Shown here: positions 21,621 to 61,944 of the stretch, in pieces
Layout of the letters: each line of letters begins with the position of its first letter
Position numbering within the stretch: position 1 is the stretch's first letter
Source: a virus
Taxonomy: Duplodnaviria > Heunggongvirae > Uroviricota > Caudoviricetes
Length of the DNA: 64,000 bases
Strand: one strand, 5' to 3'
Virus record (IMG/VR): IMGVR_UViG_3300006226_001702
Location: 75,064 to 139,063 of that record
Made by a program: the position numbers and the translations under genes
Notes under the pieces: model-generated
What the model was told of the DNA's origin: nothing
Database searches by the model: none
Seen by the model: the letters and a program-made list of their open reading frames with translations, nothing else

Positions 21621-24600
21621 CTACTCATAATCGTCAATTCCAACCATAAACTGCTGCCAAATTTCTGGCACTTCACCATCAACACCTGGAACAGCTCTAT
21701 CTTGCTTTCCAGTTATTGGGTACACTGAATAAGCCATTGGGCCCAATAGTGTAACGTATGCATCCTTTCTAATTGAAGGTTTAATGTTTGGTGCTTCATA
21801 TAAGCGCAATTTCAAGTCCGTCTTGTAACCAGTGTTTCGTGGCCATTGATTTTCTGGTACTCTAATTGTCCAGAAGTCTGCTCCCTCTTCAATGAGACAG
21901 AGAAGTTCCTCAGGTGAAATTGACTCTTTACTGTACTCAATTAAGTTGTCAACATTTATTGTCCCAAAAACATTCCATCTAATTGGAGTTAAAGTATCTT
22001 GATTGCCCCAGAAAATCTGCCAAATTGCTGTATCATAATCTTCAACTGGTCGTTGTGGATCATTTGGATGTAACTCATTCCACTTCATGTCTCTGTCGTT
22101 GTTGAGCCATTCTTTACTAAATAGTTGATACATTCCATCCCGTGGTTTTTCGGCATACTTAATTTCGCCGTCATGTTCGATAATAACTACTTCTTCAACT
22201 TCAACATATTGGTTTGGATTATCTCGATATTTAATCCACTTATCATAAGCCTTTTCATCAACCCATTTAACTCTAACATACACAACGTTAACTCTGTCAT
22301 CATCTAATTCATATTCATTCATTAGAGCTTCATGCTTTATAGTTGTGTTATTCTGTAACTCATAGAATGCAACCTTATATGAAATGAGCTTAGTTTGTAG
22401 TCTAGTTGGTGATGGCGGAGGATTATGTTTGTCAGTGAATGGCACCATAAACTCGAGAATTGATTCAAGTTGTCTCATTATCCACATTGTGCCATCTTCT
22501 TTATTAAAGCGCTTACATATGAAGTAAAGTCTATAATTGTAGAGAATATTCAAATAAGCAAACATAAAGTTGTCAATTAAGTCGCGAGGTTCAACCGCCT
22601 TAAACTCAGCTAACAAGTCAAAGGCTGAACATATTTCGTTAAATGTCCATTCCCATGGGTCTCTTAATACGAGTGATGTAAAGTGTTGAATTGCTACCTT
22701 AAACATACGGATTCTATTGTTGACTAACGTTTTTAGCTCATCTTTAGTTTTCTCATGTGTTGCTTTATCACCAAAAAGTTGTACCGCCATATCAGTCCAG
22801 TAAGCATATAATGGGTGATCTTTGTCAGCACCAATCATTTCGCCATCTGGAGTTAAACCATTTGCTTTAATCACACACTTATCAACACATTCAAATAATG
22901 CATTATGCATAACTTCAAAGTCAACTGTTTCAACAATGCTTTCTTTCATTATCTCATAATAAGGAAGTTGAGTCTGTAATATTGATAAGAAGTTTCTAAA
23001 TGGCACATCAATGCTAATGAATGAGTAGGGCTGTTCTTCTACAAATTCAGGCTTAAACAATGCTCTAGTGTACATCTTAATGAAAGTCATTTTGAGTGCA
23101 TCATCCATATCAGTTGTTGTGTATGTCGTTTCATTAGTTGTCCAATGATGATAGCCATACTGATTGTGATAACGATAATATCCATTATGCCAACCATATC
23201 CCCAACTGTTGTAACCGTAGCCATAACCTACATTGTGGCCATAACCGGGCCAGCCCCAATACCCGTGCCCATAGTATGAATACCAAGAGTTTCCCCAACC
23301 CCAACCGTAGCTCCAGTTCCATCCCCAGCCTCGATTGTAGTAGTGGTTATAACCGTAACCCCAACCAAAGTGGCGATAGTTCCAATTCCAACCACCATAC
23401 CAACCCCAGTTCCATCCATAATTGTAGCCCCAGTTGTTGTAGTAGTTGCCATAGTTGTAATAGTCATTGTGGTAATAATCTTGGTCAGCTGTATGAAACT
23501 TGAACTCGAGATCTTTTAATGGGACATCTTTACTGTAGTCTGGAAGTGCTCCATGTTTTCTGAAATAGATTGCTACATTTGGCTCGACACTATCTTCAAT
23601 GTCTGGGTCTAATCCCATCATATCAGAGAGAATGCCAATGCCTGATATTCCCTGTGTTGCTGTTGATGTCCACCATATTGGATTGAACCAAAAGCCCCAG
23701 CCCCAACCTCTATAGCGCCAAGAGCTTCCCCAGCCACCTCGCCAGTTGTAATACCAGTTGTTCCAGCCAGACCCTCTCCAGCCCCAGTTCCATCCCCATC
23801 TCCAACGACTCCAATACCAAATGTGAGCTGTTACAACATCATAATGATTGTTCGTAAACTTGTTCATTATGTTGTCAAAATAAGGAGCTGATTCATATCT
23901 ATTCTTAATGAGCTTAATGTGTAATGGTACATCATGCCCGCTTTCATATTTGTTTGTAAACAATGGTGCTTGTAAGTTATCTTCAAAGAAGTCTATTGAA
24001 GTTAAATCAACTGAGATATAATAGACTTTCTTGAAACGAGGCCACCACCAACCCCATCCCCATCCACGCCAGCCCCAGCCACCGCGGTTCCATCCCCACC
24101 AGGAATGATTATTACCTCCCCAACCTCTTCGGCCCCATGAGCCAAACCAGTTACCAAGACGATGACCCCAATAACCACCGCCTCTCCAACCCCAGCGGCC
24201 CCAACCGCCCCAGGATCGGCAAGCATCCCAATAGTAACTAACGGAACACTTTGCTCTAAAGATTGCATCAGGTCCTTGTGTGTATCTATTATCTTCATTT
24301 CCTAACAAGAACAATAGTGAAACTTCGTTCTTGCCATGATAATCGTTATTCAACATTCTTCTAATGAAGCGGTTTTCTAAATCACTGTCTCCATAGAACT
24401 TTAACACATAGGCATTCTTTTTCTGAACTTCACGAGGTTGATACCAATGTCCTCCCCAACCCCAATAGCTGCTATGTCTCCAAGTTCGATAGTTGTAACG
24501 ATGATATCTATTCCATCCCCAATAGCCAGAAGTGTAATAAGCACCCCAGCCTCCCCAAGGATTGGCCCAAGAATATCTCCATCCCCAGCCCCAACCCCAG

Positions 24601-29830: not shown

Positions 29831-30046
29831 TTAATCCGCTAACTCAAAATTTACAGAATTGAAACGTCCCTTAATTCCTTCTAAAGTTATTTTAGTGTGC
29901 CATGAATGAACATCTACACTCTCTAAGATATAAGTTTTTCCAATTTCGACCAGATTATTTGGGTCATCATTACTTCCCCATCTAATCTGGTCTTTGTCCT
30001 GCTTTTCTACAAGTTTGACTCTATCGCCTGGTCTCCATGTTGGCAT
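29831..30046 (-). CDS. Small hypothetical protein (SH3/KOW-like beta fold possible)
   Basis: WRPGDRVKLVE start; SD AGGAG. Confidence 0.6.
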   Translation of the reverse strand: MPTWRPGDRVKLVEKQDKDQIRWGSNDDPNNLVEIGKTYILESVDVHSWHTKITLEGIKGRFNSVNFELAD

Positions 30047-31830
30047 GTTTGCTCCTCTAATAATTTTCTCTTTTTCTCTTCTAATTCATTTAACTTTTCT
30101 TGATATTGCTCAACAGCTGCAGCTTTACATTGTGGACAAATCCCACGCATATTTCCCTTAATAAAACCATGAGTTTGACAATGACTGAATGTTGGTGTTA
30201 TAGTCAAATAAGGAAGTTTAGTGTTGTACATTACTTTCTTAACGAAGTCTTTTATCCTTGGCCAATCATCTAATCCTTCACCGAGGTAACAATGGAAAAC
30301 TGTGCCACCAGTGTATTTATTTTGTAATTCAACTTGATGTTCAATTGCCTCCCATGGATTTTCAGTAAAACTAACTGGCAAGTTTGAACTATTTGTGTAA
30401 TAAGGATGCTGAATTGTGCCTGCTGTTAAAATATCTGGATATTTCATTTTATCATGTCTAGCCAATCTATATGAACAACTCTCAGCTGGTGTTGATTCTA
30501 AGTTATATAAATTTCCAGTCTCTTCTTGAAAGTCTGAGCATTTATTTCGCATAAAATCTAAAACATCTAAGGCCAATTGTCTCCCATCTTTTGTAGAAAT
30601 ATCCCAATCTTTTTTCTTAACATTTCTAAAAAAGTTACGACACAATTCATTCATACCAACTAACCCAATAGTGCTAAAATGATTTTCATATTTAGCAGGA
30701 AGATATCGTTTAGTGTAAGGATATAGTCCTCTGTCAAACCATTCATTTAATTTGACTCGCTTTAGTTCCAATGAACGTTTAGCGATATTCATACATGAAC
30801 CAATTCGTTCCAATAGCTCTTCTTTTGTATGTGAAAGATAACCAATTTTTGGTAAATTCAAAGTAACAACTCCAATAGAACCAGTGTTATCACCACTACC
30901 AAAAAGTGAGCCATTTTTTCTAGTCAATTCCCTCAAGTCTAATCTTAATCTACAACACATTGACCTCGTTTCAGAAACATCCATATCAGAATTAACATAA
31001 TTACTGAAATAAAAGCTGCCGAACTTGCCAGTGAGCCTGTAGATTCTTTCTTCAAGTTCTGGGTCTAATGATTCAAAAAACTCTTTAGTACAATTTAATG
31101 TGGGAATTGGATATTGAAATATGTTGCCTAAACCATCACCATTCTCTAACAAATCAAAAAAGATTTTGTTAAGCATATTCATCTCATTTTGTAAGTCGCC
31201 ATAAGTGAATTGTTGCTTTCTTCCACCAATTACTGGTTGTTTATCTTTTAAGTCATGAGGTGGAACCAAATCTAAAGTGATGTTGCTAAATGGGGCCTGA
31301 CTGCCCCATCGTGATGGAATGTTAATTCCATATAGAAAATATTGCAAGCACTGTTTTATCTCAGTACAATTCATATTGTCTTTTCTAATAAATGGCGCCA
31401 AATAAGTATCAAAACCATTTAATGCTTGTGCGCCATTCCATTCATTCTGTAAAATGCCCAAGAAATTCACGAGCTGTTGAACAGCTGTACCCAAGTGTTT
31501 TGGAGGGCGTGAATTTATCTTGCCTCTTACACCTCCTAAACCTTCCTCTAAAACAGTTGCAATTGACCACCCCGCACAATATGCCGCTACTAATTGTAAG
31601 TCGTGAATATGAAAATCACATGACTTATGAGCACTCCTAACATCTGATGGGTAAACTTTATTTAGCCAATATTGTGCTGAAACAGTTCCAGCCTGATGAA
31701 GTATCAAGCCGCCAATTGAATATGACGAGGTACTATTTTCTCGTACTCGCCAATCCTGCTTATCCAAATAAGAATCAGTAACAAGACATGGATCAATTGT
31801 TACTGGAGAATAATCACCGTTATCTGCCAT
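30007..31830 (-). CDS. nrdD: Anaerobic (class III) ribonucleotide reductase catalytic subunit lacking the glycyl-radical loop and ATP cone
   Basis: HIHDL, YCAGWS, GAQA, SQAPFSNITLD, YPIPT, MCCRL, TGSIGVVTLN, NLESTPAES, YTGGT and C-terminal CxxH/CxxC Zn site. Confidence 0.95.
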   Translation of the reverse strand: MADNGDYSPVTIDPCLVTDSYLDKQDWRVRENSTSSYSIGGLILHQAGTVSAQYWLNKVYPSDVRSAHKSCDFHIHDLQLVAAYCAGWSIATVLEEGLGGVRGKINSRPPKHLGTAVQQLVNFLGILQNEWNGAQALNGFDTYLAPFIRKDNMNCTEIKQCLQYFLYGINIPSRWGSQAPFSNITLDLVPPHDLKDKQPVIGGRKQQFTYGDLQNEMNMLNKIFFDLLENGDGLGNIFQYPIPTLNCTKEFFESLDPELEERIYRLTGKFGSFYFSNYVNSDMDVSETRSMCCRLRLDLRELTRKNGSLFGSGDNTGSIGVVTLNLPKIGYLSHTKEELLERIGSCMNIAKRSLELKRVKLNEWFDRGLYPYTKRYLPAKYENHFSTIGLVGMNELCRNFFRNVKKKDWDISTKDGRQLALDVLDFMRNKCSDFQEETGNLYNLESTPAESCSYRLARHDKMKYPDILTAGTIQHPYYTNSSNLPVSFTENPWEAIEHQVELQNKYTGGTVFHCYLGEGLDDWPRIKDFVKKVMYNTKLPYLTITPTFSHCQTHGFIKGNMRGICPQCKAAAVEQYQEKLNELEEKKRKLLEEQTCQHGDQAIESNL

Positions 31831-36356: not shown

Positions 36357-37661
36357 TTAGTCACTATATTTTGATTGTTCCGGCCTAACATTATTGTGAA
36401 AATAGATATTTGACTTATTTCCTTCTGGATGAATTATTCGTTTGTTGTCCCAATCTTCAAGCACTTTTCTACATTCGTCAATCCAAAACTTAGTTGTACG
36501 AACTGGAACATTTTGGCCAACTACTGAACCAAAAGAATGGAAATTATGTAAATAGTTTAAGTCATGTGGAAGTCCCATAAAGTGCATATATTCTCTAAAA
36601 GTGAAACATCTATCTTCTATTGGATGTAATGCGCTCCAAGTGTTACCATGATAAACAGTTGGCATTTTCTCATTAGCAACTGAAAAGAATGACCTATCAT
36701 AATAGCCCATTCCAATTGCTTTTTTACCCAAACAATAATCATAATGTGCTTTTAATTTTTCATCTTTGTGGAACTTGTAAAACTCATCAGCTAATCCATT
36801 TAGAATAATAAAGCTTTTTAATCTATATCTTCCAACTGTATCTCGCCAATTTTTTCCAAACTTTTTGCTAATAAAAGCATACTCTTGATTTCCATCTAAA
36901 GTGTAACATTCAAACTCTTTAGTATTCTGAGTTGCGTTTGTTGGTATTCTTGAAAGGTATTCCGTAATAGTGCCAACTTTTTTGCTTTCAAATCCAATTA
37001 CAGGTGGTGGAATATCATCTTTTAACCACTTCCAAAATATCACATAAGTTCGTGGTCTATATTGAATGTTGTCATGAAGATAAGTATCTGTTTTAACATA
37101 AGTTACAGAATAACCAGAAACTTCAGCAATTTCATTTAAGTAATCTCTAACAACTTTTCCCTTTGGTGTATAAAGAGCAGGAGCATTTTCAAATAAGTAC
37201 ACTTTTGGTCTAACTGATTGTAAAACAAATTTAGTGAGAAACTTGAGGTTGTTGTTTTTCATTGAGTCATCTTTGCCATGGTCAGCTGTATTTGCTGCTG
37301 ATAAACCACTACAAACTGGCACTGAAACTATTAAGTCAACTGACTTTAAAGTTGTATCTTCTGGATTAAAATTGGCATTGCTATATTCATTATCATTTGT
37401 TATAGCAACTGGTCCATTTATATCATCAAACATTCCTCTGTTAAATTGTACATAAGGAGGAAGTTTTTTCTTTTTCTTGAGGTATTCTAAAAAATGTCTT
37501 TCGTTTCCAATGCCTCGTAAAGAGCCATCTTTTCCAAAAATTTCTTTTTCTAATCCAGGATATGATAATATCCAATTTGCCTGTTTACCAAATGATTGTT
37601 CGCCTGCGAAATAAGCACCACCAGTTAGCGGTTGAATTGCGGCCCATGTTAAATTACTCAT
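36357..37661 (-). CDS. Divergent DNA cytosine-C5 methyltransferase-like protein
   Basis: Motif IV PVCSGLS, VI FENAP, VIII IQYRPRTYVIF, IX FTFREYMHFMGLP, X GQNVP; atypical motif I (QPLTGG). Confidence 0.75.
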   Translation of the reverse strand: MSNLTWAAIQPLTGGAYFAGEQSFGKQANWILSYPGLEKEIFGKDGSLRGIGNERHFLEYLKKKKKLPPYVQFNRGMFDDINGPVAITNDNEYSNANFNPEDTTLKSVDLIVSVPVCSGLSAANTADHGKDDSMKNNNLKFLTKFVLQSVRPKVYLFENAPALYTPKGKVVRDYLNEIAEVSGYSVTYVKTDTYLHDNIQYRPRTYVIFWKWLKDDIPPPVIGFESKKVGTITEYLSRIPTNATQNTKEFECYTLDGNQEYAFISKKFGKNWRDTVGRYRLKSFIILNGLADEFYKFHKDEKLKAHYDYCLGKKAIGMGYYDRSFFSVANEKMPTVYHGNTWSALHPIEDRCFTFREYMHFMGLPHDLNYLHNFHSFGSVVGQNVPVRTTKFWIDECRKVLEDWDNKRIIHPEGNKSNIYFHNNVRPEQSKYSD

Positions 37662-39703: not shown

Positions 39704-40468
39704 TTATTTAGTTATATTTTTATGTTTCATTACACCTCTAACATATCCCTCAGGAATCTCATTTTCTTTTACTCTTTTGTTATTTACACCGTTATTCACC
39801 CAAATAAGCGAACTAAAATGATTTCGTAATAATTGTTTTGATTCAGATGTATGATTTTTTCCTTTCATCCATGTAGTTTTTCCTTTATTTGATTGACCTA
39901 TTTTTATTTTTGTTTCTTCAGAATGCTGATAATCAATTCTTGATTTAAGTCTTTTTTGTACTGTTTCTGATGTTTGTTTTTTTCCTGTAAGTGCTTCACT
40001 TATTCTTAAACAAAATTCTTTAGACCTCTTTTTTCCTTTATTTGCAATTCTTATTTTTTCTATAGTTTCTTTTGATGGTTTTCTGCCCATCATTCTCAAA
40101 CTTTGTCTTCTGTTCATTTCTTCTGTATGTTTTTTACCACTTATTCCTTTTCTATTTTCACTCATTTTTCTAACTGCTTCAGAAGTTTCTTTAGTTTGTC
40201 CTTTTCTATGATAATTATTATGTTCTTCAATAGTCATTTTAACAGCATATTTCATTATACCATCAAAATCAAATCCCCATCGTTCATAATGAGCATCATT
40301 AAAAGCTCTTTGTTCTTCTGTCTCACGAAGATGATGAATTACATAGCCTTTTGTTATATTAAAATAACCTACAGCCATATTTTTAAATTTATATGACCTA
40401 TTTGTTGATGTTCTCCATTCTTTTATATTCATAATATTTAGTATTAAACATTCAAATAACTCACTCAT
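39704..40468 (-). mobile_element. Free-standing HNH homing endonuclease with NUMOD3-type repeats
   Basis: VIHH...EEHNNYH nuclease core; repeated H(T/S)EE.K.KI/S..KGK units; WVNNG tail. Confidence 0.75.
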
Positions 40469-40923: not shown

Positions 40924-41507
40924 TGAATAGAAATATCATTATCGCTGATATAGACGACACACTGATAAAATCATCTCCAGACGATATTGGTATTTGGAAA
41001 ATGAAAGATGGAGAAGAAACTCGACTAACGACTGAGGAGTTTGCTGAAGACCCAGATAAGGGAAAGCCTGGAATAACTTATGATTATTGGGAGTTTGAAG
41101 ACCCAAAAAGAGTTAGAGACAGTATTATGAATGGCACACCTCTTATTAGAAACTTAGAGATTATTGATGATTATCTTGATAATGGATATGATTTCGTTTT
41201 CCTAACAGCCCGTGGTTGTGAAGATGTTATCAAAGATGTAATGGCTGACTTTATGAAATATCGTTCAAAAGATGGTGAGTTAAAAGAATTGGGTGATAAG
41301 TTCAAAAGAAGTCTTTCTTATGCTGTTAATGATGAAAAATATTGTGAGATATTTGATGGCTTAAAAGATTTTGAAAGAAAAGCCAGCGTTATTAAACATA
41401 TTGCTAGAATGTATGATGACGTTATTTTCATTGATGATGATGATAGAAACTTAGAAGCTGTTAAAAATCTAGACTTACAAAACGTTTCAGTAGTTAAAGC
41501 GACTTAA
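40923..41507 (+). CDS. HAD-superfamily phosphatase
   Basis: Motif I DIDDT, motif II LTARG, motif IV FIDDD..N. Confidence 0.8.
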   Translation: MNRNIIIADIDDTLIKSSPDDIGIWKMKDGEETRLTTEEFAEDPDKGKPGITYDYWEFEDPKRVRDSIMNGTPLIRNLEIIDDYLDNGYDFVFLTARGCEDVIKDVMADFMKYRSKDGELKELGDKFKRSLSYAVNDEKYCEIFDGLKDFERKASVIKHIARMYDDVIFIDDDDRNLEAVKNLDLQNVSVVKAT

Positions 41508-42184
41508 ATCCTTTTTCCCATTCTAACAAAAGCCTCTGTGTTACCAAATCTTTTTAAGTCTCTATTATAAAGAACATCAAAGTTATCTTCAAACCATTTT
41601 AATAGCTCCCTAGATTCTTCTTCTTTTTTCCTACAGTGAATTTCGATAGCAAGATACTTAATGTATTTTGGAAGCTTAGTCCAGTCAATAGTGTATTCAC
41701 CACCTTCTGTGTCCATCTTCAAAATAGTTGGTTTGTATTTTTTGAGCTCATCATAAAATGACAAAGTTGGAACAGTTATCTTATCTCTTCCTCTCACTGG
41801 AATAATTGAATGAGTTCCCATGCATGGTTTAGTACCAGCTTTTCTTCTAGTTATGTAAAAATCAATTGTGCCAACTTCTCCAGCCATTGCGACATTATTT
41901 AGAATTGCATTACCCAATTTCTGTTTAGACAACACTTGAAAGTTTTCAGGTTCTGGCTCGTAAGAGATAACTTGTTTTGCTCCATATTTTAGAGCATTAT
42001 ATGCAAAGACGCCAATATTAGCACCAACGTCCATAACGACTTGGTCTTCACAAACTTTGAAAATTTCTTTATATTCATACATCTCTTTTAAGACGTCTAA
42101 ATCTCCAGTGTCAGGTCTATAAAATAATCCAGTTTTAGCATCTTCTAAAATAACGAGATTATTATTTCCAAATGTAAATGACAT
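41504..42184 (-). CDS. FkbM-family SAM-dependent methyltransferase
   Basis: MDVGANIGVF, ISYEPEPENF, ILKMDTEGGEY. Confidence 0.85.
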   Translation of the reverse strand: MSFTFGNNNLVILEDAKTGLFYRPDTGDLDVLKEMYEYKEIFKVCEDQVVMDVGANIGVFAYNALKYGAKQVISYEPEPENFQVLSKQKLGNAILNNVAMAGEVGTIDFYITRRKAGTKPCMGTHSIIPVRGRDKITVPTLSFYDELKKYKPTILKMDTEGGEYTIDWTKLPKYIKYLAIEIHCRKKEEESRELLKWFEDNFDVLYNRDLKRFGNTEAFVRMGKRI

Positions 42185-43083
42185 TAAAGTCCTCCAAATT
42201 TAAATCCATTCAATTGTTTGTATTCATCAGGATATTCTTTTATGTACCATTCTGGATATTTGACAGCATTTTTTGCACTAATTTTTGCTCCCATGACTCC
42301 ATTCAAATCCCAATGAATAATGTTTGGATATTTTTTAATTAGATATCTATAAACATCTTTATGCTTTTTGGACTGTTCTGCCTTTTTAGTTTGCTCTACA
42401 TTTAAGTCCCATGCTTGTGATTTAATTTTCTTGTCATAAACTGCTTCTAAAAAGTTTACTGTCTTTCCAGAAAAACCACTCTTAATAAATCTACAAACGA
42501 GTTCAACATCTTCTCCAACACCTAATGGACAATCTTTATCAAAGTTTATGTTGTGCTGTTTCATTAGTTCAATGTTTATTCCATAACAACCAGCAAATAA
42601 AGTATGTGAACTTTTAGATAATGGAGTTGTTCCTTTATAAGATTTGTTTGGACCAAATAATTTTAATCCAATTTGACTAGAAGGTATTTTAACAAACCAA
42701 TCTTTTTCAACATCAATATATTGTTCAATAGTGGCAAAGAAAGAAGCAATATCGACTGGGATGTATTTTGAATCTAAATCCTTAGTTTGGAACTTGATAT
42801 AATCATCATCAATGAACCAAGCAAATTTAGTTCCCAATTCCTGCTGATGCTTAATCATATCATATCTTTTTTCAGCAATATTTCTCTTTGGACCTTGTAC
42901 AATTATGTTACCAGTTTTTTCGTATTCTTCTTTATCATCAGTTACATCAATATAAATGTAAGCACTTAATTTTGATTTCTTTAAATGCTCAAAAGTATGT
43001 CCAACTGGCCTCTGATGACTGGGCACACAAATTGGATATTTTGGTGTGCCTTTTATAATGTAATCTAAATGAGTTTTCATCAT
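42184..43083 (-). CDS. GT-A glycosyltransferase, TET-associated (TAGT/GREB1-like) type
   Basis: YPICVPSHQR, NIAEKRYDM, AWFIDDD (DxD), GEDVE. Confidence 0.7.
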   Translation of the reverse strand: MMKTHLDYIIKGTPKYPICVPSHQRPVGHTFEHLKKSKLSAYIYIDVTDDKEEYEKTGNIIVQGPKRNIAEKRYDMIKHQQELGTKFAWFIDDDYIKFQTKDLDSKYIPVDIASFFATIEQYIDVEKDWFVKIPSSQIGLKLFGPNKSYKGTTPLSKSSHTLFAGCYGINIELMKQHNINFDKDCPLGVGEDVELVCRFIKSGFSGKTVNFLEAVYDKKIKSQAWDLNVEQTKKAEQSKKHKDVYRYLIKKYPNIIHWDLNGVMGAKISAKNAVKYPEWYIKEYPDEYKQLNGFKFGGL

Positions 43084-43085
43084 AT

Positions 43086-44390
43086 TTAATTTATGAAACT
43101 AGAATGCTGCACTTTGTTAGTTTCAAGCTCCATCAATATTTTGTTAGTTTCTGCTATCTTACAATTTATTGGGCAATATCTAGTATTTAATTCCTCCCCT
43201 TGTTTATAACGATAATCACTATTCCAAATATCAATTAAACGATTATCTGCTGTTATTTTTCCATAATAGCCACTCTTTGATCCATTATTGTAATCATTTA
43301 ATTTGAAACAACAAGTTAGGACTACACCTTCTGAAGTGATAGTTGGATATAATGCATGTCCATAACATTTCTTAAAAGGTATTCCAGTTTTTTCATATTT
43401 AATCAATTCTGCAAACTTATATGAGATAGTATAAACTTTGAAGGTGTCAGTTGAATAAGCAGACACATTAGATAATAGACTAAATATCTCCTTATCCCAA
43501 AATATGAAGGCAAGATTTAATCTATCTTCTGGGAATAAAACTATTGGTTTAATTTGTATATAATCGACACCAATTTTTCTAAAAGTATTTATTGCAGGAA
43601 GTACATCGAGATAATTATATGGAGTTAAAAGATAAGACACCCCAATAGTTATATCTGAATTATTTTCTCTTTTACATTGGACTGCTCTTTCAATAGCAGC
43701 AACAGTTTCATCAAAGTCAGCTACATTTCCATGCATCTCTTTATAAACTGTATCACTACCAGCATCAACTGAAAATCTAACCCATTGACAATAATCAATA
43801 ACAGGTTTTGGGTCCTTCAATAATTGACCATTAGTTATTAAGCCAACATCAAAATGTTGATTTAATGCTCTAATAATCTCTTGCCATTTTGGATGGCATA
43901 ATGGTTCACCACCTCCAGATAAGTTAACACCCTTAACCCCAAGTGTCTTCATATCTTCAACTAAGTTTGGCAATAATTTCATGTCAAAATTATGTTTCTG
44001 TTGTGGTGATAATTCTTTAACTGAAAAGGTACAACCTGGGCAAGCATGATTACAGAAAGTAGAAGGATGCATTTCAACAGTAACTGGTCCAACTTCTTTT
44101 CGAGTTTCTGGACAGAGATAATCTCTTAATTTGTCAAAATGAGATAATATCTTATTTGAAGTAAAGATAGAAGATTTTTGATTTGCAAATCTATTGTAGA
44201 ATTCCTCTAAGTTTTTCTGTTCTTCATCTAACATAATAGTTTTGACTTTAATAACAGTTTGTGCAGGTAACATTTCGGTGTTGTGAATAAACATATTATA
44301 GTCACTCAATGTGAGTCCTATCTGATTTGCAAAATCGTCTTTAGACAATTTTAATTGATTTCTTAATTTTTCTAAAACTTCTGTTCTCAT
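43086..44390 (-). CDS. XRE-type HTH fused to a radical SAM enzyme with SPASM/twitch-like tail
   Basis: N-terminal LEKLRNQLKLSKDDFANQIGL HTH; CNHACPGC (CxxxCxxC); SGGGEP; LITNG; C-terminal KCY...TCC...CPINC. Confidence 0.85.
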   Translation of the reverse strand: MRTEVLEKLRNQLKLSKDDFANQIGLTLSDYNMFIHNTEMLPAQTVIKVKTIMLDEEQKNLEEFYNRFANQKSSIFTSNKILSHFDKLRDYLCPETRKEVGPVTVEMHPSTFCNHACPGCTFSVKELSPQQKHNFDMKLLPNLVEDMKTLGVKGVNLSGGGEPLCHPKWQEIIRALNQHFDVGLITNGQLLKDPKPVIDYCQWVRFSVDAGSDTVYKEMHGNVADFDETVAAIERAVQCKRENNSDITIGVSYLLTPYNYLDVLPAINTFRKIGVDYIQIKPIVLFPEDRLNLAFIFWDKEIFSLLSNVSAYSTDTFKVYTISYKFAELIKYEKTGIPFKKCYGHALYPTITSEGVVLTCCFKLNDYNNGSKSGYYGKITADNRLIDIWNSDYRYKQGEELNTRYCPINCKIAETNKILMELETNKVQHSSFIN

Positions 44391-45361
44391 AATTGACCAA
44401 ATTTCTCCTTGAAACTTTTTGGTGTTGCATTCTTGATTAGATTAACCCATTCATAACCGTCGGATTTTGATTTCATTGAATCTCTAGCATAAAAAGTTTC
44501 ATTCTCTTCTAATATGTCCTGTAAAAAGTTATCCAATGAATCTGTTCTCCATCTATATTGAATTGGTCTCAATGATGATAAGCCTCGTCTAATAACGATA
44601 TCCGCCATATTGACTTTTCTCATTGCCATTACATTTTCACTTCCCCATTTCTTGTAAAGATTAAAACCTAACATACAAGTTTTATCTAAACCAGTAGAAA
44701 AGAATGCTCCCTTTTTAACTCGAGCATCTTGTGAAGTAGCTTTTTGAGCAGCATATTCAATATAAGTCATGGGTCTAATTCCCTGCTCTAATAATTGTAA
44801 GAAGTAATCATAATCTTCCCACATCATAATATCAGTAGTGTGATAAATAAGTTTACCACATTTTTCTCTCATTTTTTTCAAGTCCCAATAATGAATTGAT
44901 ATTGGACTCATGTGACAATATTTTGCTGGACGATGAATTCTATTCTTAATAAAATTGCTTCCTGCCATACCTCCATAAATGTGTTCGATTTCTGGAAGCT
45001 CTGGCCATCTAACATAAGGTACAGTTAGATTACGAATAAAATCTTCTTTACTGTAAGGGCCAAACTTACAAAGTCGTGATATGTTTTCATCAAACATCCA
45101 AACTTTATTATAGCCGTGAGCCTCTGCCCAATCCATAACATAATTCTTTAATGATGACATATTAGACTGTGTATCTTTATATGGCATTCCGTTATGTTCA
45201 ACAGCAAAATTTTTCGGTTTCCAATCTGGAAATTCGTTTTTATCTACAAATGCTACGACATCTTGTTTGTCATTAGAATGAAAAACATTCTTATATTTAA
45301 TGTCATCATATTTACAAAACGGTCCCCTTCCAGCCAAAATTGTTACTAAAGTTTTACTCAT
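44387..45361 (-). CDS. Second GT-A glycosyltransferase, TAGT-like
   Basis: NYVMDWAEAHGYNKVWMFDENI and WEDYDYFLQLL. Confidence 0.65.
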   Translation of the reverse strand: MSKTLVTILAGRGPFCKYDDIKYKNVFHSNDKQDVVAFVDKNEFPDWKPKNFAVEHNGMPYKDTQSNMSSLKNYVMDWAEAHGYNKVWMFDENISRLCKFGPYSKEDFIRNLTVPYVRWPELPEIEHIYGGMAGSNFIKNRIHRPAKYCHMSPISIHYWDLKKMREKCGKLIYHTTDIMMWEDYDYFLQLLEQGIRPMTYIEYAAQKATSQDARVKKGAFFSTGLDKTCMLGFNLYKKWGSENVMAMRKVNMADIVIRRGLSSLRPIQYRWRTDSLDNFLQDILEENETFYARDSMKSKSDGYEWVNLIKNATPKSFKEKFGQL

Positions 45362-45756
45362 GTCCTTTCCTTGATATTTTTAAGTACTCCATATCCTGAA
45401 GTTACTAGTATTGGTATGTTGTTTTTAATATGTATTAGAATGCTTTCAAATTCATCTACAATTGGTGGATAAGCATTTTTATTTCCAAGGCTCACCGCAA
45501 TTCTTGCACTCTCTAAAATCTTTTGCATATCCACACAAGCATTTAAAGTTTTTTCTACTGCTTCTGTTAGTTGTGTTACTCTTCTATTAGCTAATTCTCT
45601 ATTTACTCCAATTCCAAACATTGCGTTATAGATACTTTTTTCTTCATCATCTTCACCAACTAAATCATCTAAATCTATTGGTTGATAGTCCATAGCATCT
45701 TCTACATCTGAGAGAAGTTGGTCGATTTCTTTTTGACTCAAAGTTCCATCACTCAT
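45358..45756 (-). CDS. Protein with N-terminal FliM/FliY-like CheY-binding peptide
   Basis: MSDGTLSQKEIDQLL; class II motif 5 nt upstream. Confidence 0.7.
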   Translation of the reverse strand: MSDGTLSQKEIDQLLSDVEDAMDYQPIDLDDLVGEDDEEKSIYNAMFGIGVNRELANRRVTQLTEAVEKTLNACVDMQKILESARIAVSLGNKNAYPPIVDEFESILIHIKNNIPILVTSGYGVLKNIKERT

Positions 45757-45761
45757 ATTCT

Positions 45762-45770
45762 TATATTAAC
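45762..45770 (-). promoter_or_regulatory. Class II motif GTTAATATA
   Basis: GTTAATATA-AGAAT-ATG(45756). Confidence 0.65.
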
Positions 45771-46083
45771 TTTTACAAAACTGGCAATTACAATTAGTCT
45801 TACCAGAGAAAATGCAAACATCGTCATTTTCAGTTTTATCTTCCTCTGGAAAATTAAAGTCAGCAAAATCATCGAATTCTATTCCTGGAAACTCTAATTT
45901 TTTCGGAGGAAGATTTAACTTCACATTAACTTGTTTTACTACTTTCGGTTGTGGGGATTCAATAACTGTTGGTTTATATGGCCTGTTATATGTATGTCTT
46001 TTATATAAAATTGGAATAATAATCGTCAAGAGCCAGACGCCAGTCATTGATATGATAATTGAAAGTAGAATTTCTTCAATCAT
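45766..46083 (-). CDS. Small single-pass membrane protein
   Basis: N-terminal TM helix; C-terminal CxxC. Confidence 0.65.
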   Translation of the reverse strand: MIEEILLSIIISMTGVWLLTIIIPILYKRHTYNRPYKPTVIESPQPKVVKQVNVKLNLPPKKLEFPGIEFDDFADFNFPEEDKTENDDVCIFSGKTNCNCQFCKS

Positions 46084-46241
46084 TTTCTTGTATAAGTTTC
46101 CTCTTCTCCATATATCATTTTATTATCTTCATACAATTTAATTAAAATGTTGTATAATTCTTCTTGTTCTTTTTTATCTAATTCTACCTTCCCAACTGGA
46201 GTCTTAAATTCGTGAATCCAATATTCTATTCTGTCAGTCAT
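46080..46241 (-). CDS. 53-aa hypothetical protein (not in track)
   Basis: MTDRIEYWIHEFKTPVG...; SD AAGGAG; ATGA overlap with the next gene. Confidence 0.6.
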   Translation of the reverse strand: MTDRIEYWIHEFKTPVGKVELDKKEQEELYNILIKLYEDNKMIYGEEETYTRK

Positions 46242-46252
46242 AATTATGCTCC

Positions 46253-46441
46253 TTAATCAAATAATTCTGATCTTCCAAGTAGTTTTTCTACTGTCTTTAG
46301 TGCTTTAGTGAGTCTTAAATCAAATATGTTTAATCTCCTATTTACTACACTTACATCATTTTCTACTCTTGCTATTGTTGTTTCTAACTCCTTTAAGTAC
46401 ACAAACCAATCATTGTTTGTTTTTACTTGTTCTATTGTCAT
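46253..46441 (-). CDS. Small coiled-coil hypothetical protein
   Basis: 62-aa ORF; SD AAGGA. Confidence 0.6.
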   Translation of the reverse strand: MTIEQVKTNNDWFVYLKELETTIARVENDVSVVNRRLNIFDLRLTKALKTVEKLLGRSELFD

Positions 46442-47360
46442 TAATGCATTCCTTTATAGTTTTTCTAACTGCATCATCAGATGATCTATCAACTATAAAA
46501 CCTAATTTCTGTAATTTATCGACATTAAAACTGAATGTGTTAATGTCGCCCACATACCCGGTGGGGTTTGCTCCGTATTGAATGTTATTGCAATTAAATT
46601 CTTTAGCTACCCATTCGGCCATATCCTTCAATTTAGTTTTCGATTTATCGTATGGCGCTACATTAAATACATTAACCTTCTTAGCAGAATTAAACCACAA
46701 AAAGATTATTGCATCAATTAAATCTTTAACATGTATGTACGGTTTGCATTGAGACCCATCTCCCAACACTTCTAATTTTTTTGGATTTTCTTTTAACTGT
46801 CTAATAAAATTCCAAAGAGCTCCATGAGTCATTCTTGGGCCAATAACATTTGGGAATCTTATTATTAAAGTATGCATTCCATAGTTTTCAGCAAAGGAAG
46901 ATATAAAAGCTTCAGAAGCTAATTTTGCTGCCCCATAATGTGATAATGGTAAAAGTGGCCCACTAGATTCTAACAAACTCATATTTCCATGGTCACCATA
47001 AACTGTTGACGATGATGAAAATATGAAGTTCTTTATTTTATTTACACGGGCTATTTCAAGCATATAAAATGTTGAAAGAAAAGTTTCATTCAAATCAAAA
47101 GAGCTATCCTCTATTGACTTAAAAGTATCAGCATTAGAAGCGATGTGAAAAATTGCATCCACTCCTTCAAATATTGAATCTGGAAGTGTTTTAATATCTT
47201 TTGCAATTAACTGAAACTTATCACTTTTAATATGTTTGATATTATTTTCAGTTCCTTTGGAGAAATTATCAATCCCAATAACTTCGTAATCTTGAGCTAA
47301 TAATGCGTCAACTAAATGACTACCAATAAAGCCAGCGGCACCCGTACAAATAACTTTCAA
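46410..47360 (-). CDS. NAD-dependent NDP-sugar epimerase (UDP-glucose 4-epimerase-like extended SDR)
   Basis: TGAAGFIGSHL, SSSSTVYG, YGAAK (YxxxK), RFPNVIGPR, LEVLGDGSQ; TTG start with GGAGG SD. Confidence 0.9.
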   Translation of the reverse strand: MKVICTGAAGFIGSHLVDALLAQDYEVIGIDNFSKGTENNIKHIKSDKFQLIAKDIKTLPDSIFEGVDAIFHIASNADTFKSIEDSSFDLNETFLSTFYMLEIARVNKIKNFIFSSSSTVYGDHGNMSLLESSGPLLPLSHYGAAKLASEAFISSFAENYGMHTLIIRFPNVIGPRMTHGALWNFIRQLKENPKKLEVLGDGSQCKPYIHVKDLIDAIIFLWFNSAKKVNVFNVAPYDKSKTKLKDMAEWVAKEFNCNNIQYGANPTGYVGDINTFSFNVDKLQKLGFIVDRSSDDAVRKTIKECINDNRTSKNKQ

Positions 47361-47370
47361 AAGTTACCTC

Positions 47371-48033
47371 CTATAATTCTAATAATTTATTTAAAGTTTC
47401 TTCTGCGCTATTTCCAGGTTGAACAGTTTTCCAGACTTCATATTCACCACCATCTTTATGAACCATTGAAGCCATATCTTCATAAGCTTGTTTAACTCTA
47501 GTTTCAAAAGAGTCACCGGCTGTTTCAAACAAATCATTTACTCCAATAGAACGATTTCCCACTCTATCTGGAAAATAGTAAATGATATTTGGTGTTACAT
47601 CTGGATAAGGATTTTTGAAAAAGTTTATAACATGCATTACTTTTTCTTTTGAATGATACTTTAACATATCATCAATAATTTGCTTGCCATAAAATTGATA
47701 AGCAATGCACGAATAAGTGTGTCTATCACATATAACAGTTTTACCTGCTTTCAAGTTCGGTCTAATTATTTTGGCAATGCATTCAGCTTTATCCAACATA
47801 AATGCATGCATATTTCCATAAGAAGATAATTCCCATCGTTTATCTTTACAAAGAGAACGAAGCGTTGTTGCTAATGGACCCCAATCACCACCAGGTTGTC
47901 TAGTCATAATTGTGTCAATTCCCTCTGAGTTTAGTTTATCGGCCAAAAGTTTTGCAACACTAGTTTTTCCAGTAGCGTCAAAACCTTCAAACACGATAAA
48001 TTTATTCTTGAATTTGTTCATTAAAAGCTCCAT
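47371..48033 (-). CDS. tmk: Thymidylate kinase-like dNMP kinase
   Basis: FIVFEGFDATGKT, TRQPGG, VICDRH. Confidence 0.85.
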   Translation of the reverse strand: MELLMNKFKNKFIVFEGFDATGKTSVAKLLADKLNSEGIDTIMTRQPGGDWGPLATTLRSLCKDKRWELSSYGNMHAFMLDKAECIAKIIRPNLKAGKTVICDRHTYSCIAYQFYGKQIIDDMLKYHSKEKVMHVINFFKNPYPDVTPNIIYYFPDRVGNRSIGVNDLFETAGDSFETRVKQAYEDMASMVHKDGGEYEVWKTVQPGNSAEETLNKLLEL

Positions 48034-48253
48034 AGCTTAATTTAGTCATAATACTGTCACCTTGAATCGCTACAAAATCAGCAGCTCTTAACTCTAAAAT
48101 TATTTTAGATAACTCAATAAAGTTTATATTTCCACCAGCATCAAGTTTAGTGTGAATTAAATGTTCGAGACAATTTAACACACCATCTCTAGTGTTATCA
48201 GAAACTAAATGAATTTCTTTTTCGCTCAATAACATGCGCTTTCCAGATGACAT
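48002..48253 (-). CDS. Hypothetical protein
   Basis: 83-aa ORF in operon. Confidence 0.6.
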   Translation of the reverse strand: MSSGKRMLLSEKEIHLVSDNTRDGVLNCLEHLIHTKLDAGGNINFIELSKIILELRAADFVAIQGDSIMTKLSYGAFNEQIQE

Positions 48254-48262
48254 TATTATTTC

Positions 48263-48904
48263 CTATTTTAGATTATCGTCATAAATATCGTTATATGCCG
48301 TTTCAGTCATGTTCAAATTAGTTATTTTAGTTTGATAAATGTCGTCAACATCTTTTTCTTCTGTAACTTTTGCATATAAATTAAGAGCACCTTTAAATTC
48401 TGCTTTTGGTGAGAAATTAATGTCTTCAGCAACTTGTGTACAACCAAAATTTATCTCATCAGCAAGCTCACAAATAGTAGCTTGAAAACCTTTCATGTTA
48501 TCTATTGCGGCCCAAGTTTCGTCAATGTCATTTACTCTAACATCTTTGTTTTTAACTTTAATCTCAATACCATGAGCTGCCATTGCTTCAAAGTATGGCT
48601 CTAACAAATCTGGATTACCAGTTGCATACAAGTCATCAATTATTTGAAGTAACTTCTTAAAAGTTGGACTCACTCTGTCCTTAAATTTTTCATTTGGGTC
48701 GAGCTCTAATGGGTTACCCATCCAGCCTCTTTTGTGGTAGTAAGAATAATCCTTACAACGAATCATGACAGGCTTCTCGATTTTTTGCATCTTTGCCATA
48801 TCTGCTGCCACCATGTTCATATGCTTTGAAGCAGTTTTCTTTTCAGTTAAAAGACCATAAGCTTCCGATAGCAATTCTTTTGGTGTCGTTTGTTTTTCTG
48901 ACAT
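48263..48904 (-). CDS. Hypothetical protein
   Basis: 213-aa ORF; SD AAGGAG; class II motif at 48924-48932. Confidence 0.7.
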   Translation of the reverse strand: MSEKQTTPKELLSEAYGLLTEKKTASKHMNMVAADMAKMQKIEKPVMIRCKDYSYYHKRGWMGNPLELDPNEKFKDRVSPTFKKLLQIIDDLYATGNPDLLEPYFEAMAAHGIEIKVKNKDVRVNDIDETWAAIDNMKGFQATICELADEINFGCTQVAEDINFSPKAEFKGALNLYAKVTEEKDVDDIYQTKITNLNMTETAYNDIYDDNLK

Positions 48905-48931
48905 ATTTTATCTCCTTGAATGTTATATTAA

Positions 48932-49786
48932 CTATTGTATAAATCCAGAATTTGGATTTTCATACATCTTTTTGACTTCTGGTTGATTATGTAGATATTC
49001 AAAATACTCTTTAATGATTTTATCAAGTAATTCAAAGTCTCTTTCATAAATGTGAAGTGAGCCTGCATTCCAATAAATGTTTCCACGTTCTGGATCCATG
49101 CTACTAAACATTCTAATATCTTTTAGAAAATATTCATAAACAAATCCATGCCATGGTAAGTCACCACAATGAAGTCCTCTAATAACATCATTACTTCTCA
49201 TTGTAACAATATAATCAAATCTATTTTTTCTAATAAAATGTTGTGTTGTTATAGTACAAGTAAAATCAGATTTAGCATTTATTCCATCATTCCATTCCCA
49301 TTGCATTTGTGGACGACCATAATAGATTATTGACTGTCTTCCATCTGGTTTTTCAATAAGTTGTTCTAAAGCATATTTATATTGAGATTTTTCAACTTTA
49401 TTTCTTGGTATATAAATATGTCTTTTATTATCAGTAAGTCCATCATAATAGATCCTTCCATTTTCTGGACTAAAAACACACCAACCATAATTTGAATTAA
49501 CTCGGCCATCATCAGTACAAATGCGGGACCAAATTTTATTATCTTCAATTCCCTTATGTCCCTTAATACATCTGTCTTGACTCATGTACCATTTGTGTTC
49601 ATTTTCTATATATTTATGTTGAGCTTTTCTGGATTCACCAAGATGAAGTTTAGTATCAGTTGCATCAAAAACAAGATTTGCATTAATGATTTCAGCTGTT
49701 CCTGCAACTAAATCATTTTTCTTAATTTTTTCCTGTAATGGAATTAAAACATTTTCAATGAGATAAATAGCGTTTTTTGTGTACAT
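48932..49786 (-). CDS. dCMP hydroxymethylase-like enzyme (T4 gp42 branch of the thymidylate synthase superfamily)
   Basis: NSNYGW..F, RQSIIYYGRPQMQ, DFTCT, MRSNDV..G....DLPW and IYWNAGSLHIY mirror T4 gp42 (DFMCT, MRSNDVVFGFRNDYAW, IIWNVGSLHVY, as recalled). Confidence 0.8.
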   Translation of the reverse strand: MYTKNAIYLIENVLIPLQEKIKKNDLVAGTAEIINANLVFDATDTKLHLGESRKAQHKYIENEHKWYMSQDRCIKGHKGIEDNKIWSRICTDDGRVNSNYGWCVFSPENGRIYYDGLTDNKRHIYIPRNKVEKSQYKYALEQLIEKPDGRQSIIYYGRPQMQWEWNDGINAKSDFTCTITTQHFIRKNRFDYIVTMRSNDVIRGLHCGDLPWHGFVYEYFLKDIRMFSSMDPERGNIYWNAGSLHIYERDFELLDKIIKEYFEYLHNQPEVKKMYENPNSGFIQ

Positions 49787-49807
49787 ATTCCTTTCCTTAA
49801 GTTTATT

Positions 49808-50356
49808 TTATAAAAACTTATTTGCGTGTAAATGATGTTTAACTTCATCAAATACTTGTTCTATTGTCTTTCCAGTTATATTGATTAATGTTTTGTGTTT
49901 AATGTTACTCTTTTCATAAAACTCTTTGAAACGATTTATCTCATCAGTTTTCTTTTCAAGTTCAACTGAAAAAGATTTTCCATCATCTCTGCTAATTAAA
50001 TCTTGTGGGTCAGCAACGAATACATATAATTTTATATTATTTAAGACTCGCCTGCCAAATCTTTCTTCAATTTCATAAACATAGTCACCAATGTAATTTC
50101 TATAAATTGAACTATAAACTGTTTCACCACCATGTGCTCTATCCATTGCAAGATTCAAATTATTATAAGTGGCGAACTTAATTAGATTAAACATTTCTGT
50201 GTAATGACGTTCTGATTTCTCTTTAACATTATCTCCCTTAATAGATGAATAATGCAAAACATGAATCGTTTGTCCATTTTCTTCCAGATATTTTTTGATT
50301 AAATCTAACTGTGTTGATTTTCCAACCCTATCAGGTCCTTCTATCAAAATAACCAT
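49808..50356 (-). CDS. Second nucleoside-monophosphate kinase (P-loop)
   Basis: ILIEGPDRVGKST, MDRAH..E.VY. Confidence 0.8.
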   Translation of the reverse strand: MVILIEGPDRVGKSTQLDLIKKYLEENGQTIHVLHYSSIKGDNVKEKSERHYTEMFNLIKFATYNNLNLAMDRAHGGETVYSSIYRNYIGDYVYEIEERFGRRVLNNIKLYVFVADPQDLISRDDGKSFSVELEKKTDEINRFKEFYEKSNIKHKTLINITGKTIEQVFDEVKHHLHANKFL

Positions 50357-55568: not shown

Positions 55569-56819
55569 CTATTTCTTCAAGTTAACTATTAAGTTTGCAA
55601 CAATCCCAAGAACTGCTCCAAGTGCGACACCAGATAATGAGAATTGACCAGCATTCAATGCAAGGCCTCCCAAACTTGGTGCTAAAATACAAGCTGTTAC
55701 ACACAAGTTTTTGTTATCAGAATAATCAACTCCATTTTTAACTAACATTCTTAATCCACTTGCTGCTATTAAACTGAAGAGCAACATACAGACACCACCA
55801 AGAACTGGCGTTGGAATAGTTTGAATTACAGCTCCAAACTTTCCAAAGAATGAAATAACTATTGCAATAATTGCGCCTAAACCAATGACCCAAACTGAAT
55901 AAACTTTAGTGATAGACAATACACCAACATTTTCTCCGTATGAGGTGTTTGGCGGTCCACCAAATAATGCAGCGAAAGAAGTTGCTAAACCATCACCAAT
56001 TAAAGTTCGATGAACTCCTGGGTCCTTAAACAATTCTCTATTAGTTATTGAACTCACTGCATACACATCACCAAAGTGTTCAATCATTGTTGCAATTGAC
56101 ACAATTAAGAATACGACAATTGCTGCCCATGAAAATTGTGGAACTATTATCTGTGGGAAATTAAGCCAAGGTGCAGACGCTACAATACTAAAATTGATTA
56201 AATTGTATGCTGGAAAAAATTGTCCCATTATTAAAGTGAAAACATAACCAACGATTATGCCACCAAGAATTGGAATAATTTTGAAAAATCCCTTAGAAAA
56301 AACAGACAAGAAAATAGTTGCCGCAAGTGAGACTGCTGCAATTGATAGTAAAACTAAACTGTAACCATTACCTGCACCGTCTAAAGTCATAGCCATATTT
56401 ACTGCAACTGGTGCTAAATACAAACCAATTGAAATAATAACTGAACCAATAACGACTGGAGGGAAAACAGTGTCAAACCATTTAGTGCCGAACTTCTTAA
56501 TAATTGATGCAATTATAATGTAGAATAAACCAACACATATCGCACCACCCATTGCATAACTCCAACCTAAACTACTGCTAATTGCAATTAGTGCTGGAAT
56601 AAACGCAAACGAACTCCCCAAAAACATTGGTACCTTAGCTCCAGTAATTGCAATAAAAAGCAAGGTACCAATACCTGCTGTAAATAATGCCGTTAGTGGA
56701 TTAAGTCCAACTATTATTGGGACTAGAATTGTTGCTCCAAACATTGCAAACACATGTTGGAAACTTAATACAAACCAAGATGCAATCGATTTTGGCTTCT
56801 CGTGAATGTCATAAACCAT
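55569..56819 (-). CDS. uraA: Uracil permease (NAT/NCS2 family)
   Basis: QHVFAMFGATILVP, LGSSFAF, FPPVVIG, EHFGD, HRTLIGDG, PNTSYGENVG, IPTPVLGG. Confidence 0.93.
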   Translation of the reverse strand: MVYDIHEKPKSIASWFVLSFQHVFAMFGATILVPIIVGLNPLTALFTAGIGTLLFIAITGAKVPMFLGSSFAFIPALIAISSSLGWSYAMGGAICVGLFYIIIASIIKKFGTKWFDTVFPPVVIGSVIISIGLYLAPVAVNMAMTLDGAGNGYSLVLLSIAAVSLAATIFLSVFSKGFFKIIPILGGIIVGYVFTLIMGQFFPAYNLINFSIVASAPWLNFPQIIVPQFSWAAIVVFLIVSIATMIEHFGDVYAVSSITNRELFKDPGVHRTLIGDGLATSFAALFGGPPNTSYGENVGVLSITKVYSVWVIGLGAIIAIVISFFGKFGAVIQTIPTPVLGGVCMLLFSLIAASGLRMLVKNGVDYSDNKNLCVTACILAPSLGGLALNAGQFSLSGVALGAVLGIVANLIVNLKK

Positions 56820-57033
56820 TAAAAATACTCCTTCTTCGTGGGTTTAATTTTTCTTTAACTTTTTCTTTTAATTTCTCTGTGCAATACTTTTTAGCTTCTG
56901 TTGCATCTTCAAATGATTTTTCTACAATGTCTGATGGCTTTCCCCAATAACAATTGTACATTTTATCTTCTAATTTAATTGTGTAAAATCCCGCTCCTGG
57001 GAAGTTTTTTGATTCTATTTTATATGATATCAT
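56809..57033 (-). CDS. Small WGR-domain-like protein
   Basis: FYTIKL......YWGK.....KSF.D..EAKK....KL.EK. Confidence 0.45.
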   Translation of the reverse strand: MISYKIESKNFPGAGFYTIKLEDKMYNCYWGKPSDIVEKSFEDATEAKKYCTEKLKEKVKEKLNPRRRSIFNGL

Positions 57034-58060
57034 TCTTCTTTAATAATTTTTGTATAACGTATCTACCATCTAATAATTCACTAATAGATTCCTTCTTAAA
57101 GATTTTAGAAATAATTGTTGCAAAAAACTTAGTTACATCTGCTTCTAAAAACCACTCATTGTTCCAAAGATGTGGATTATAAACTGCATTGGTTCCAATC
57201 ACATAATTAAAGTCGCCATTTTTGAATGCCTCATCAAAAGAGTCAACCGCATTGCCATTAAAGAATGGAAGTGATGTCCCAATAGTTACTGTCTGTGCTC
57301 CTTCTGCTTTCAATAATTGCGCTGCTCTTAAAATAGTTCCGCCAGTATCAATCATATCATCAAAGAGGAAACAATCTTTTCCCTTAATATCACCCAACAC
57401 TTTCATTGATATGATGTTTGAATCTTTTACTGAATCAGAAACTCTCTCATAATCTCGCTCTTTGTAAATAACAGCATAATCAGCTTTTAGAATTCTAGCA
57501 AAAAACTTATTCCGTTCAGCAGCACCTGTATCTGGAGCCACAACGCAGATATTGTCAGCCTCTTTTAATGATGGTAATAACTTTTTCATTATGTAATATG
57601 AAGCATGAAGATTTTCTACGACAATGTTACAGAACGCATTTTCTAATTCTCTATTATGTAAGTCGAGCGTAATAATTCTATCGATATTGAAAGTCTCAAA
57701 AAACTGTGCCAACATTTTAGCAGTTAGTCCTTCTCTGCCAGCCTTACGATGTTGTCTAGCGTATGGAAAAGTTGGAAGGATTAGTGATATGCTGTTAGCC
57801 CCGCTTCGGCGTACTGCGTCAGTTATAACGAATAACTCAAATAAGTTATCGTGAATGTGCCCTGGCATATTAGCAACATCTTGAATTATGAAAACTTCAC
57901 ATCCTCTTACGGATTCTAACAATTCAGATTTAAGTTCACCGTTCTTAAATTTAGTCCACTTAACTGGGATTTCAAGTTCATGGTCAAACTTCTCTTTAAG
58001 ATGATAACATACTTTGTTTCCAAAAAACGTTGCTGATGGGCAGCTGATTATCTTAAGCAT
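57020..58060 (-). CDS. prs: Ribose-phosphate pyrophosphokinase (PRPP synthetase)
   Basis: FKNGE, VRGCEVFIIQ, PYARQHRK, TLDLH, VAPDTG, FDDMIDTGGT. Confidence 0.93.
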   Translation of the reverse strand: MLKIISCPSATFFGNKVCYHLKEKFDHELEIPVKWTKFKNGELKSELLESVRGCEVFIIQDVANMPGHIHDNLFELFVITDAVRRSGANSISLILPTFPYARQHRKAGREGLTAKMLAQFFETFNIDRIITLDLHNRELENAFCNIVVENLHASYYIMKKLLPSLKEADNICVVAPDTGAAERNKFFARILKADYAVIYKERDYERVSDSVKDSNIISMKVLGDIKGKDCFLFDDMIDTGGTILRAAQLLKAEGAQTVTIGTSLPFFNGNAVDSFDEAFKNGDFNYVIGTNAVYNPHLWNNEWFLEADVTKFFATIISKIFKKESISELLDGRYVIQKLLKKNDII

Positions 58061-61854: not shown

Positions 61855-61944
61855 AAAATATTCCTTTTTTGTATTTACTATTAACGACAATCGCTTAATC
61901 ATAGCGATGAACAAAGGTGGGTGTTTTTCAACGTTTTTCTTGTT

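Follow-up and report, generated by a model that had tools for sequence, protein, structure and literature searches.

The window analysed here is a 64,000-nucleotide stretch (C1:75064-139063) of a 198,648-bp IMG/VR virus record, G000, which CheckV rates as 60% complete. The record has a G+C content of approximately 33%, 22 tRNA genes and a tmRNA gene, features that lead us to regard it as a fragment of a jumbo phage. The tRNA and tmRNA genes lie at C1:162758-179804, with others at 13540 and 66057-66857, and the tmRNA tag ends in AALLAA. Within the window, the minus strand encodes a C5 cytosine DNA methylase (36357-37661), a NUMOD3 homing-endonuclease-like gene (39704-40468) and a DNA hypermodification cluster (41504-50356). 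The cluster comprises a thymidylate-synthase-like enzyme, two thymidylate-kinase-like proteins, a NAD epimerase, two TET-associated-type glycosyltransferases (TAGTs), a radical SAM/SPASM protein with a helix-turn-helix (HTH) and a FkbM methyltransferase. Two very large ORFs also lie on this strand, one open-ended (2-5539, more than 1,846 aa) and the other of 1,855 aa (21621-27188).

The gene of interest, P0001, is a single minus-strand ORF of 132 aa (45358-45756) with the cluster genes as its neighbours. The gene directly upstream (45766..46083, minus) encodes 105 aa, with a single membrane helix at the N-terminus and a tail that is acidic, and directly downstream is a TAGT gene (44387..45361, minus) that overlaps the P0001 ORF by 4 nt. 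An initial sequence-only reading had taken P0001 to be the first gene after a promoter. This does not hold, given that the gene starts 9 nt behind the 105-aa ORF inside a tightly packed run of co-oriented genes that extends from 46441 to 41504, and that the 19 sigma-70-like sites found around it compare with 19.6 expected from shuffles. The combined promoter and terminator scan around the gene likewise stayed at chance level. A 53-aa protein (46080-46241, minus) and the 105-aa membrane protein occur in the same order in related phages, and megablast of 4 kb against GenBank phages gave no match.

The first ATG of P0001 lies three codons past a stop, and the translation opens MSDGTLSQKEIDQLLSDVE. 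These first 19 codons (45700..45756, minus) encode the putative copy of a host FliY N-terminal CheY-P docking peptide; the segment originally singled out, 45712-45756, covers codons 1-15. Codons 20-45 (45622..45699, minus) form a disordered acidic linker with a conserved DDL(V/I)G(E/D)D, in which D31 and L32 are invariant, and codons 46-132 with the stop (45358..45621, minus) form an antiparallel helical hairpin with a conserved GY(E)IL near the C-terminus. The AF2 model built with the family alignment (mean pLDDT 72.7) has a helix at residues 8-21, pLDDT below 50 at residues 22-39 and antiparallel helices at 53-92 and 97-131. The 132-aa ORF with a FliM/FliY-type start, the acidic linker and the helical body of the sequence-only reading are thus all borne out, as is its statement that the FliM middle and SpoA domains are absent. 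Neither a FliM middle domain (PF02154) nor a CheC-like domain was found in Pfam even at E <10, the model is all-helical, and Pfam gave no C-terminal SpoA/FliN rotor-assembly domain, the chain ending after the hairpin at residue 132.

The remainder of the protein resembles nothing informative in the resources searched. Pfam and PHROGs assigned no family (nothing below E 0.07), phmmer against PDB sequences returned nothing and the ESM Atlas gave no informative neighbour. Fold searches with Foldseek against the PDB and a wide VIA-align run retrieved generic helical hairpins only (Z <10), with no CheZ or FliS-type lead among them. By eye, the post-linker EDDEEKSIYNAMFG is similar to the start of the FliY CheC-like helix, SEDERKAIQNFLSG; hhalign stops short of this region and we do not claim the similarity.

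The N-terminus of P0001 carries the LSQxEIDxLL ('EIDALL') docking peptide of FliM, FliY and FliN, and the CheY-P binding site established for FliM and FliY is this EIDALL motif (PMC9126983). In a six-frame translation of the 198,648-bp record the relaxed FliM-type motif occurs once, at the P0001 N-terminus. An exhaustive HMMER search, covering 1.84 billion representatives, recovered three relatives and a profile search two more, giving five distinct homologues (P0002-P0006) of 123-137 aa, all on large AT-rich contigs. They are 28-34% identical to P0001 overall and open MSDG(A/S)LSQDEIDALL(A/S)GV. Conservation within the family is highest in the peptide (65-72% identity, against 23% for the body), and mean pairwise identity falls from 0.72 at residues 6-15 to 0.36 in the linker and 0.23 in the body. 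Loss of the peptide in homologues, named at the outset as an observation that would speak against a docking function, is therefore not what the family shows. The only invariant columns are E10, I11, L15, D31, L32, G121 and Y122. In P0002 the peptide is degraded to LTQDEIEAML, which counts against a role as a CheY-P competitor.

The family profile also retrieved bacterial FliY fragments starting MSDGALSQDEIDALLAGVD. A scan for such fragments in one genome per species gave 80 loci, all from Treponema, Spirochaetaceae or Breznakiellaceae and mostly from termite-gut MAGs; MSDGALSQDEIDALLAGVDS is the start of 45 of the 74 full Treponema FliY proteins from these loci, and FliM in the same Treponema-group genomes begins MTEVLSQ(E/D)EIDQLLTAINAG. 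Aligned by hhalign to 20 Treponema FliY N-termini, the P0001 family matched with a probability of 98.1% and an E value of 6.7e-14 over columns 1-26 only, which upholds the proposed FliY-type CheY-P docking peptide at sequence level. The alignment takes in the MSDG prefix, which we presume to lie outside the CheY contact, and the GV(D/E) suffix. These shared flanks argue for capture from the 5' end of a host fliY gene and not for convergence. LTQDEIDALL also occurs in tyrosine integrases (L135, L136), so the motif can arise in unrelated proteins. The case for P0001 is accordingly built on where the peptide sits, on its flanks and on its conservation, and not on the bare motif. Judged by these alignments, the P0001 peptide is a homologous copy of the host FliY N-terminus and not a chance motif.

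Degenerate DNA scans over all IMG/VR contigs for two peptide variants gave seven stretches for LSQDEIDALL and seven for LSQxEIDQLL, five of the 14 on related AT-rich jumbo-phage contigs. Four of the 14 define a second family of small proteins (126-150 aa), also on AT-rich jumbo-phage contigs (L140:6364-6813, minus; L141:564-1004, minus; L143:9269-9646, plus; L145:2210-2620, minus). After a short lead-in, its members carry the FliM peptide of Treponema (TEVLSQxEIDQLLTAI) and then an acidic stretch that leads into a coiled coil; the C-terminus is (E/D)LFD. Identity is 0.92 in the peptide versus 0.14 in the middle of the protein, and the family is otherwise unrelated to that of P0001. It lies approximately 85 kb from P0001 in another gene context, and a terminator-like hairpin stands just before the gene in all three loci whose upstream sequence was examined. 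One member, P0011, shares a single ENA contig with P0001 (ERZ27257348, 183,314 bp), in a region outside the part included in G000. P0010 pairs with P0003 and P0012 with P0002 on contigs taken to be shared from their matching lengths. A FliY-type and a FliM-type mimic thus occur together in at least three phages, two of the three pairs being established through matching lengths. In a further relative, P0019 has the peptide at its very N-terminus and fills the syntenic slot.

Two other proteins, P0018 (L168:298-585) and P0022 (L164:725-1042), consist of three tandem CheY-docking-type peptides and little else. They are 95-105 aa long and come from the same metagenome series, on short contigs with 47-54% G+C that may be bacterial; one adjoins a PemK toxin gene. 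Separately, a 152-kb G+C-rich IMG/VR contig encodes a Cys-rich 154-aa protein with ILSQDEIDALLNG six residues from its start (L132:4454-4918, plus). The product of the next gene (L132:4965-5840, plus) is 291 aa long and has a FliM middle domain (Pfam E 2e-12), an LSQEEVTALL start and no SpoA match in Pfam. This contig, noted together with L137, may represent another mobile element carrying such genes.

The host is likely a termite-gut Treponema-like spirochaete, because both peptides match lineage-specific FliY and FliM flanks and because of the identity of two metabolic genes. These are a uracil/xanthine permease gene (window 55569-56819, minus) and a PRPP synthetase gene (57020-58060, minus), which have 63-72% nucleotide identity to many Treponematales genomes in a comparison with no outgroup. 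The spirochaete host suggested in the sequence-only reading agrees with the same N-terminus heading FliY in termite-gut Treponema and Breznakiellaceae genomes. A 20-kb DNA query, run on 401 Treponematales genomes to look for spacer-like links to a host, hit mainly the shared permease and PRPP-synthetase genes; a few matches of approximately 45-50 bp, with 83-87% identity, were not strong enough to count as spacers. The anaerobic ribonucleotide reductase NrdD in the window (30007-31830, minus) fits an anaerobic host. The host assignment comes largely from the peptides themselves, which counts against the competitor role considered below.

To model the presumed interaction, residues 1-45 of the P0001 family were co-folded with a 145-aa CheY3-like protein of Breznakiella homolactica (L100:4638-5075, minus), using a partner alignment of 17 Breznakiellaceae CheY3-like sequences. 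The complex reached an ipSAE of 0.32 (three runs, 0.31-0.32) versus 0.00 for the best control, which is weak support. At least 71% of contacts agree between runs, and partner pLDDT is at least 53. In calibration, 58 of 80 solved complexes reached the ipSAE mark, as did 2 of 110 mismatched pairs, and values of 0.60 or below were seen for only 7 of the 80 solved complexes and for both mismatches that passed. Complexes of CheY with FliM peptides have already been solved, and the predictor may have passed P0001 through having learnt them. The co-folding check proposed in the sequence-only reading is therefore counted as no more than a small positive. Isolated FliM peptides bind CheY-P with micromolar affinity (27 uM, quoted in PMC9126983), so sequestration by a sponge would depend on high abundance or on avidity, a further point against competition.

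The interpretation we favour, by a modest measure, is that P0001 is a host-takeover protein that binds CheY-P in competition with the motor switch; the binding, the competition and any motility phenotype are inferred. Residues 1-19 to 1-26 would derive from the host FliY N-terminus, the peptide that captures phosphorylated CheY, and the enzymatic and rotor-binding domains of FliY would have been replaced by the acidic flexible linker and the helical hairpin. The peptide is expected to form a short helix that sits in the alpha4-beta5-alpha5 groove of host CheY-P, where it would compete with the N-termini of FliM and FliY. The motor switch would then receive less CheY-P, altering reversal or flexing of the infected cell. 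The hairpin probably oligomerises or anchors the protein, and the phage would pair P0001 with the second protein bearing the FliM-type peptide. Somewhat more tentatively, and at a little under an even chance, we propose that spirochaete jumbo phages carry a two-part FliY/FliM mimic kit that removes CheY-P from the motor and fixes the swimming of infected cells.

Comparison with known systems places P0001 closest to spirochaete FliY (and that of Bacillus and Thermotoga), with which it shares homologous first 19-26 residues at the same very N-terminal position. It differs from FliY in being phage-encoded, in its length (132 aa versus approximately 370 aa), in having neither the CheC-like phosphatase domain nor the FliN/SpoA rotor domain, and in having an acidic linker where that of FliY is Ala/Pro/Gly-rich. 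Activated CheY with the FliM N-terminal peptide is known from solved complexes such as 1F4V (cited in PMC9126983). P0001 shares the LSQxEIDxLL core of that peptide, is predicted to be helical there, and presumably would bind the alpha4-alpha5 face of CheY; without the FliM middle domain that relays the signal to the rotor, such binding would be a dead end. CheZ is a dimer built on a long helical hairpin, to which a flexible linker joins a terminal peptide that docks on CheY. P0001 is similar in this layout, but its peptide is N-terminal whereas that of CheZ is C-terminal. The stretch separating L32 from G121 contains no invariant position in the P0001 family; the hairpin helices therefore lack any conserved Gln, Asn or acidic side chain that could serve in catalysis, and the catalytic residues of CheZ (Gln/Asp) or of the CheC type (Glu..Asn) are not conserved in the family. 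A CheZ-like phosphatase role is consequently not supported.

The best-surviving alternative, which we consider improbable but worth keeping in view, is that P0001 is a CheY-P tether or sensor, in which the peptide brings CheY-P to a partner of the hairpin and does not starve the motor. Candidates for this partner are a phage assembly and the upstream membrane protein, with the C-terminal LFD as the equivalent in the second family, and the effect would be to read the chemotactic state of the host or to relocalise CheY. Both families do join the peptide to a conserved second module, either the GYEIL hairpin end or the coiled coil ending in (E/D)LFD, and the conserved membrane-protein gene always precedes the P0001 gene. 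In this phage, six open frames end in [ED]LFD where 0.12 would be expected, an excess suggestive of a common hub. Against a tether, the hairpin shows generic structural matches only, and the three-tandem-peptide mini-proteins P0018 and P0022 fit plain sequestration better. The six [ED]LFD-ending frames (P about 4e-9) are one at window 46253-46441 (minus) and those with C1 ends at 61912, 67740, 142343, 173766 and 174005. The ending looks like a shared C-terminal docking motif for a hub, and it resembles the clamp-binding tails of T4-type proteins.

The constant adjacency to a DNA glycosyltransferase gene could mean another role and so counts against the competitor reading. In all six contexts read, the P0001-family gene lies between the membrane-protein gene and the TAGT gene, abutting or overlapping the TAGT start, while the rest of the cluster varies among relatives (epimerase, dCMP deaminase, SIS, amine oxidase, QueC-like, radical SAM and methyltransferase genes). 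P0001 could on this basis be an accessory of DNA hypermodification, such as a TAGT chaperone, scaffold or regulator, with the peptide serving another use or none, which we regard as quite unlikely. The gene for the approximately 100-aa single-pass membrane protein is directly upstream of P0001 in all relatives and is also present in a phage without the P0001 gene: in the complete 329-kb relative G046 it is followed directly by TAGT, with no P0001 homologue in the slot. Co-occurrence of P0001 with TAGT is thus not obligate, and the P0001 gene is a separable module and not an obligate part of DNA modification. In addition, selection acts on the peptide and not on the body, and the FliM-type family sits far from the cluster with its own terminator-like hairpin.

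Two further explanations appear more remote still. The peptide might dock on the phage's own receiver domains, of which G000 has two in a 975-aa hybrid histidine kinase (C1:170641-173568, minus; Pfam: PDC sensor, HisKA, HATPase, REC, Hpt, REC); no receiver domain was found in two records with P0001 homologues (G044, 79% complete; G045, 29% complete), and the peptide follows the sequences of host FliY and FliM, proteins known to partner with CheY, so we give this very little weight. The kinase gene itself lies outside the window, within the tRNA array and beside an HNH endonuclease gene. That P0001 is a neutral relic, a captured fliY 5' end fused to a phage gene with a functionless peptide, would account for identity reaching into the presumably non-contact MSDG, as expected of a recent capture, but is hardly credible when bodies have diverged to 23% identity with the peptide still at 65-72%, which points to purifying selection, and when an independent family repeats the pattern for the FliM peptide.

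Full-text literature searches found no phage protein with a CheY-docking peptide or targeting the CheY-to-switch step, in line with the sequence-only reading, which knew of no described phage system of this kind. Only one case of phage interference with motility signalling came up in the literature searched, that of peptides binding YfiN. These phage peptides reportedly bind the diguanylate cyclase YfiN and alter host motility signalling (PMC8085984). Pilus targets of phages are also known. P0001 would resemble the YfiN-binding peptides in being small, phage-encoded and directed at a component of host motility control, and would differ in acting on the CheY-to-switch step through a copied host docking peptide. 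The peptide itself is already known; what is new is its detachment from the switch domains, its location in phages and its paired use.

Host docking peptides have been copied onto two unrelated phage scaffolds and kept there under strong selection. P0001 may prove useful as a natural, genetically encoded binder of CheY-P in spirochaetes. Short-motif mimicry is well known from eukaryotic viruses, and the present case indicates that a search of phage genomes for host docking peptides separated from their usual domains can reveal it there too. What a phage would gain from this in a host whose flagella are periplasmic is a matter for speculation, and could include dispersal, niche retention or blocking of a CheY-dependent host response. 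If the two-part kit of FliY and FliM mimics is as we propose, it would be the first phage hijack of bacterial chemotaxis output and a clear case of viral short-linear-motif mimicry in bacteria.
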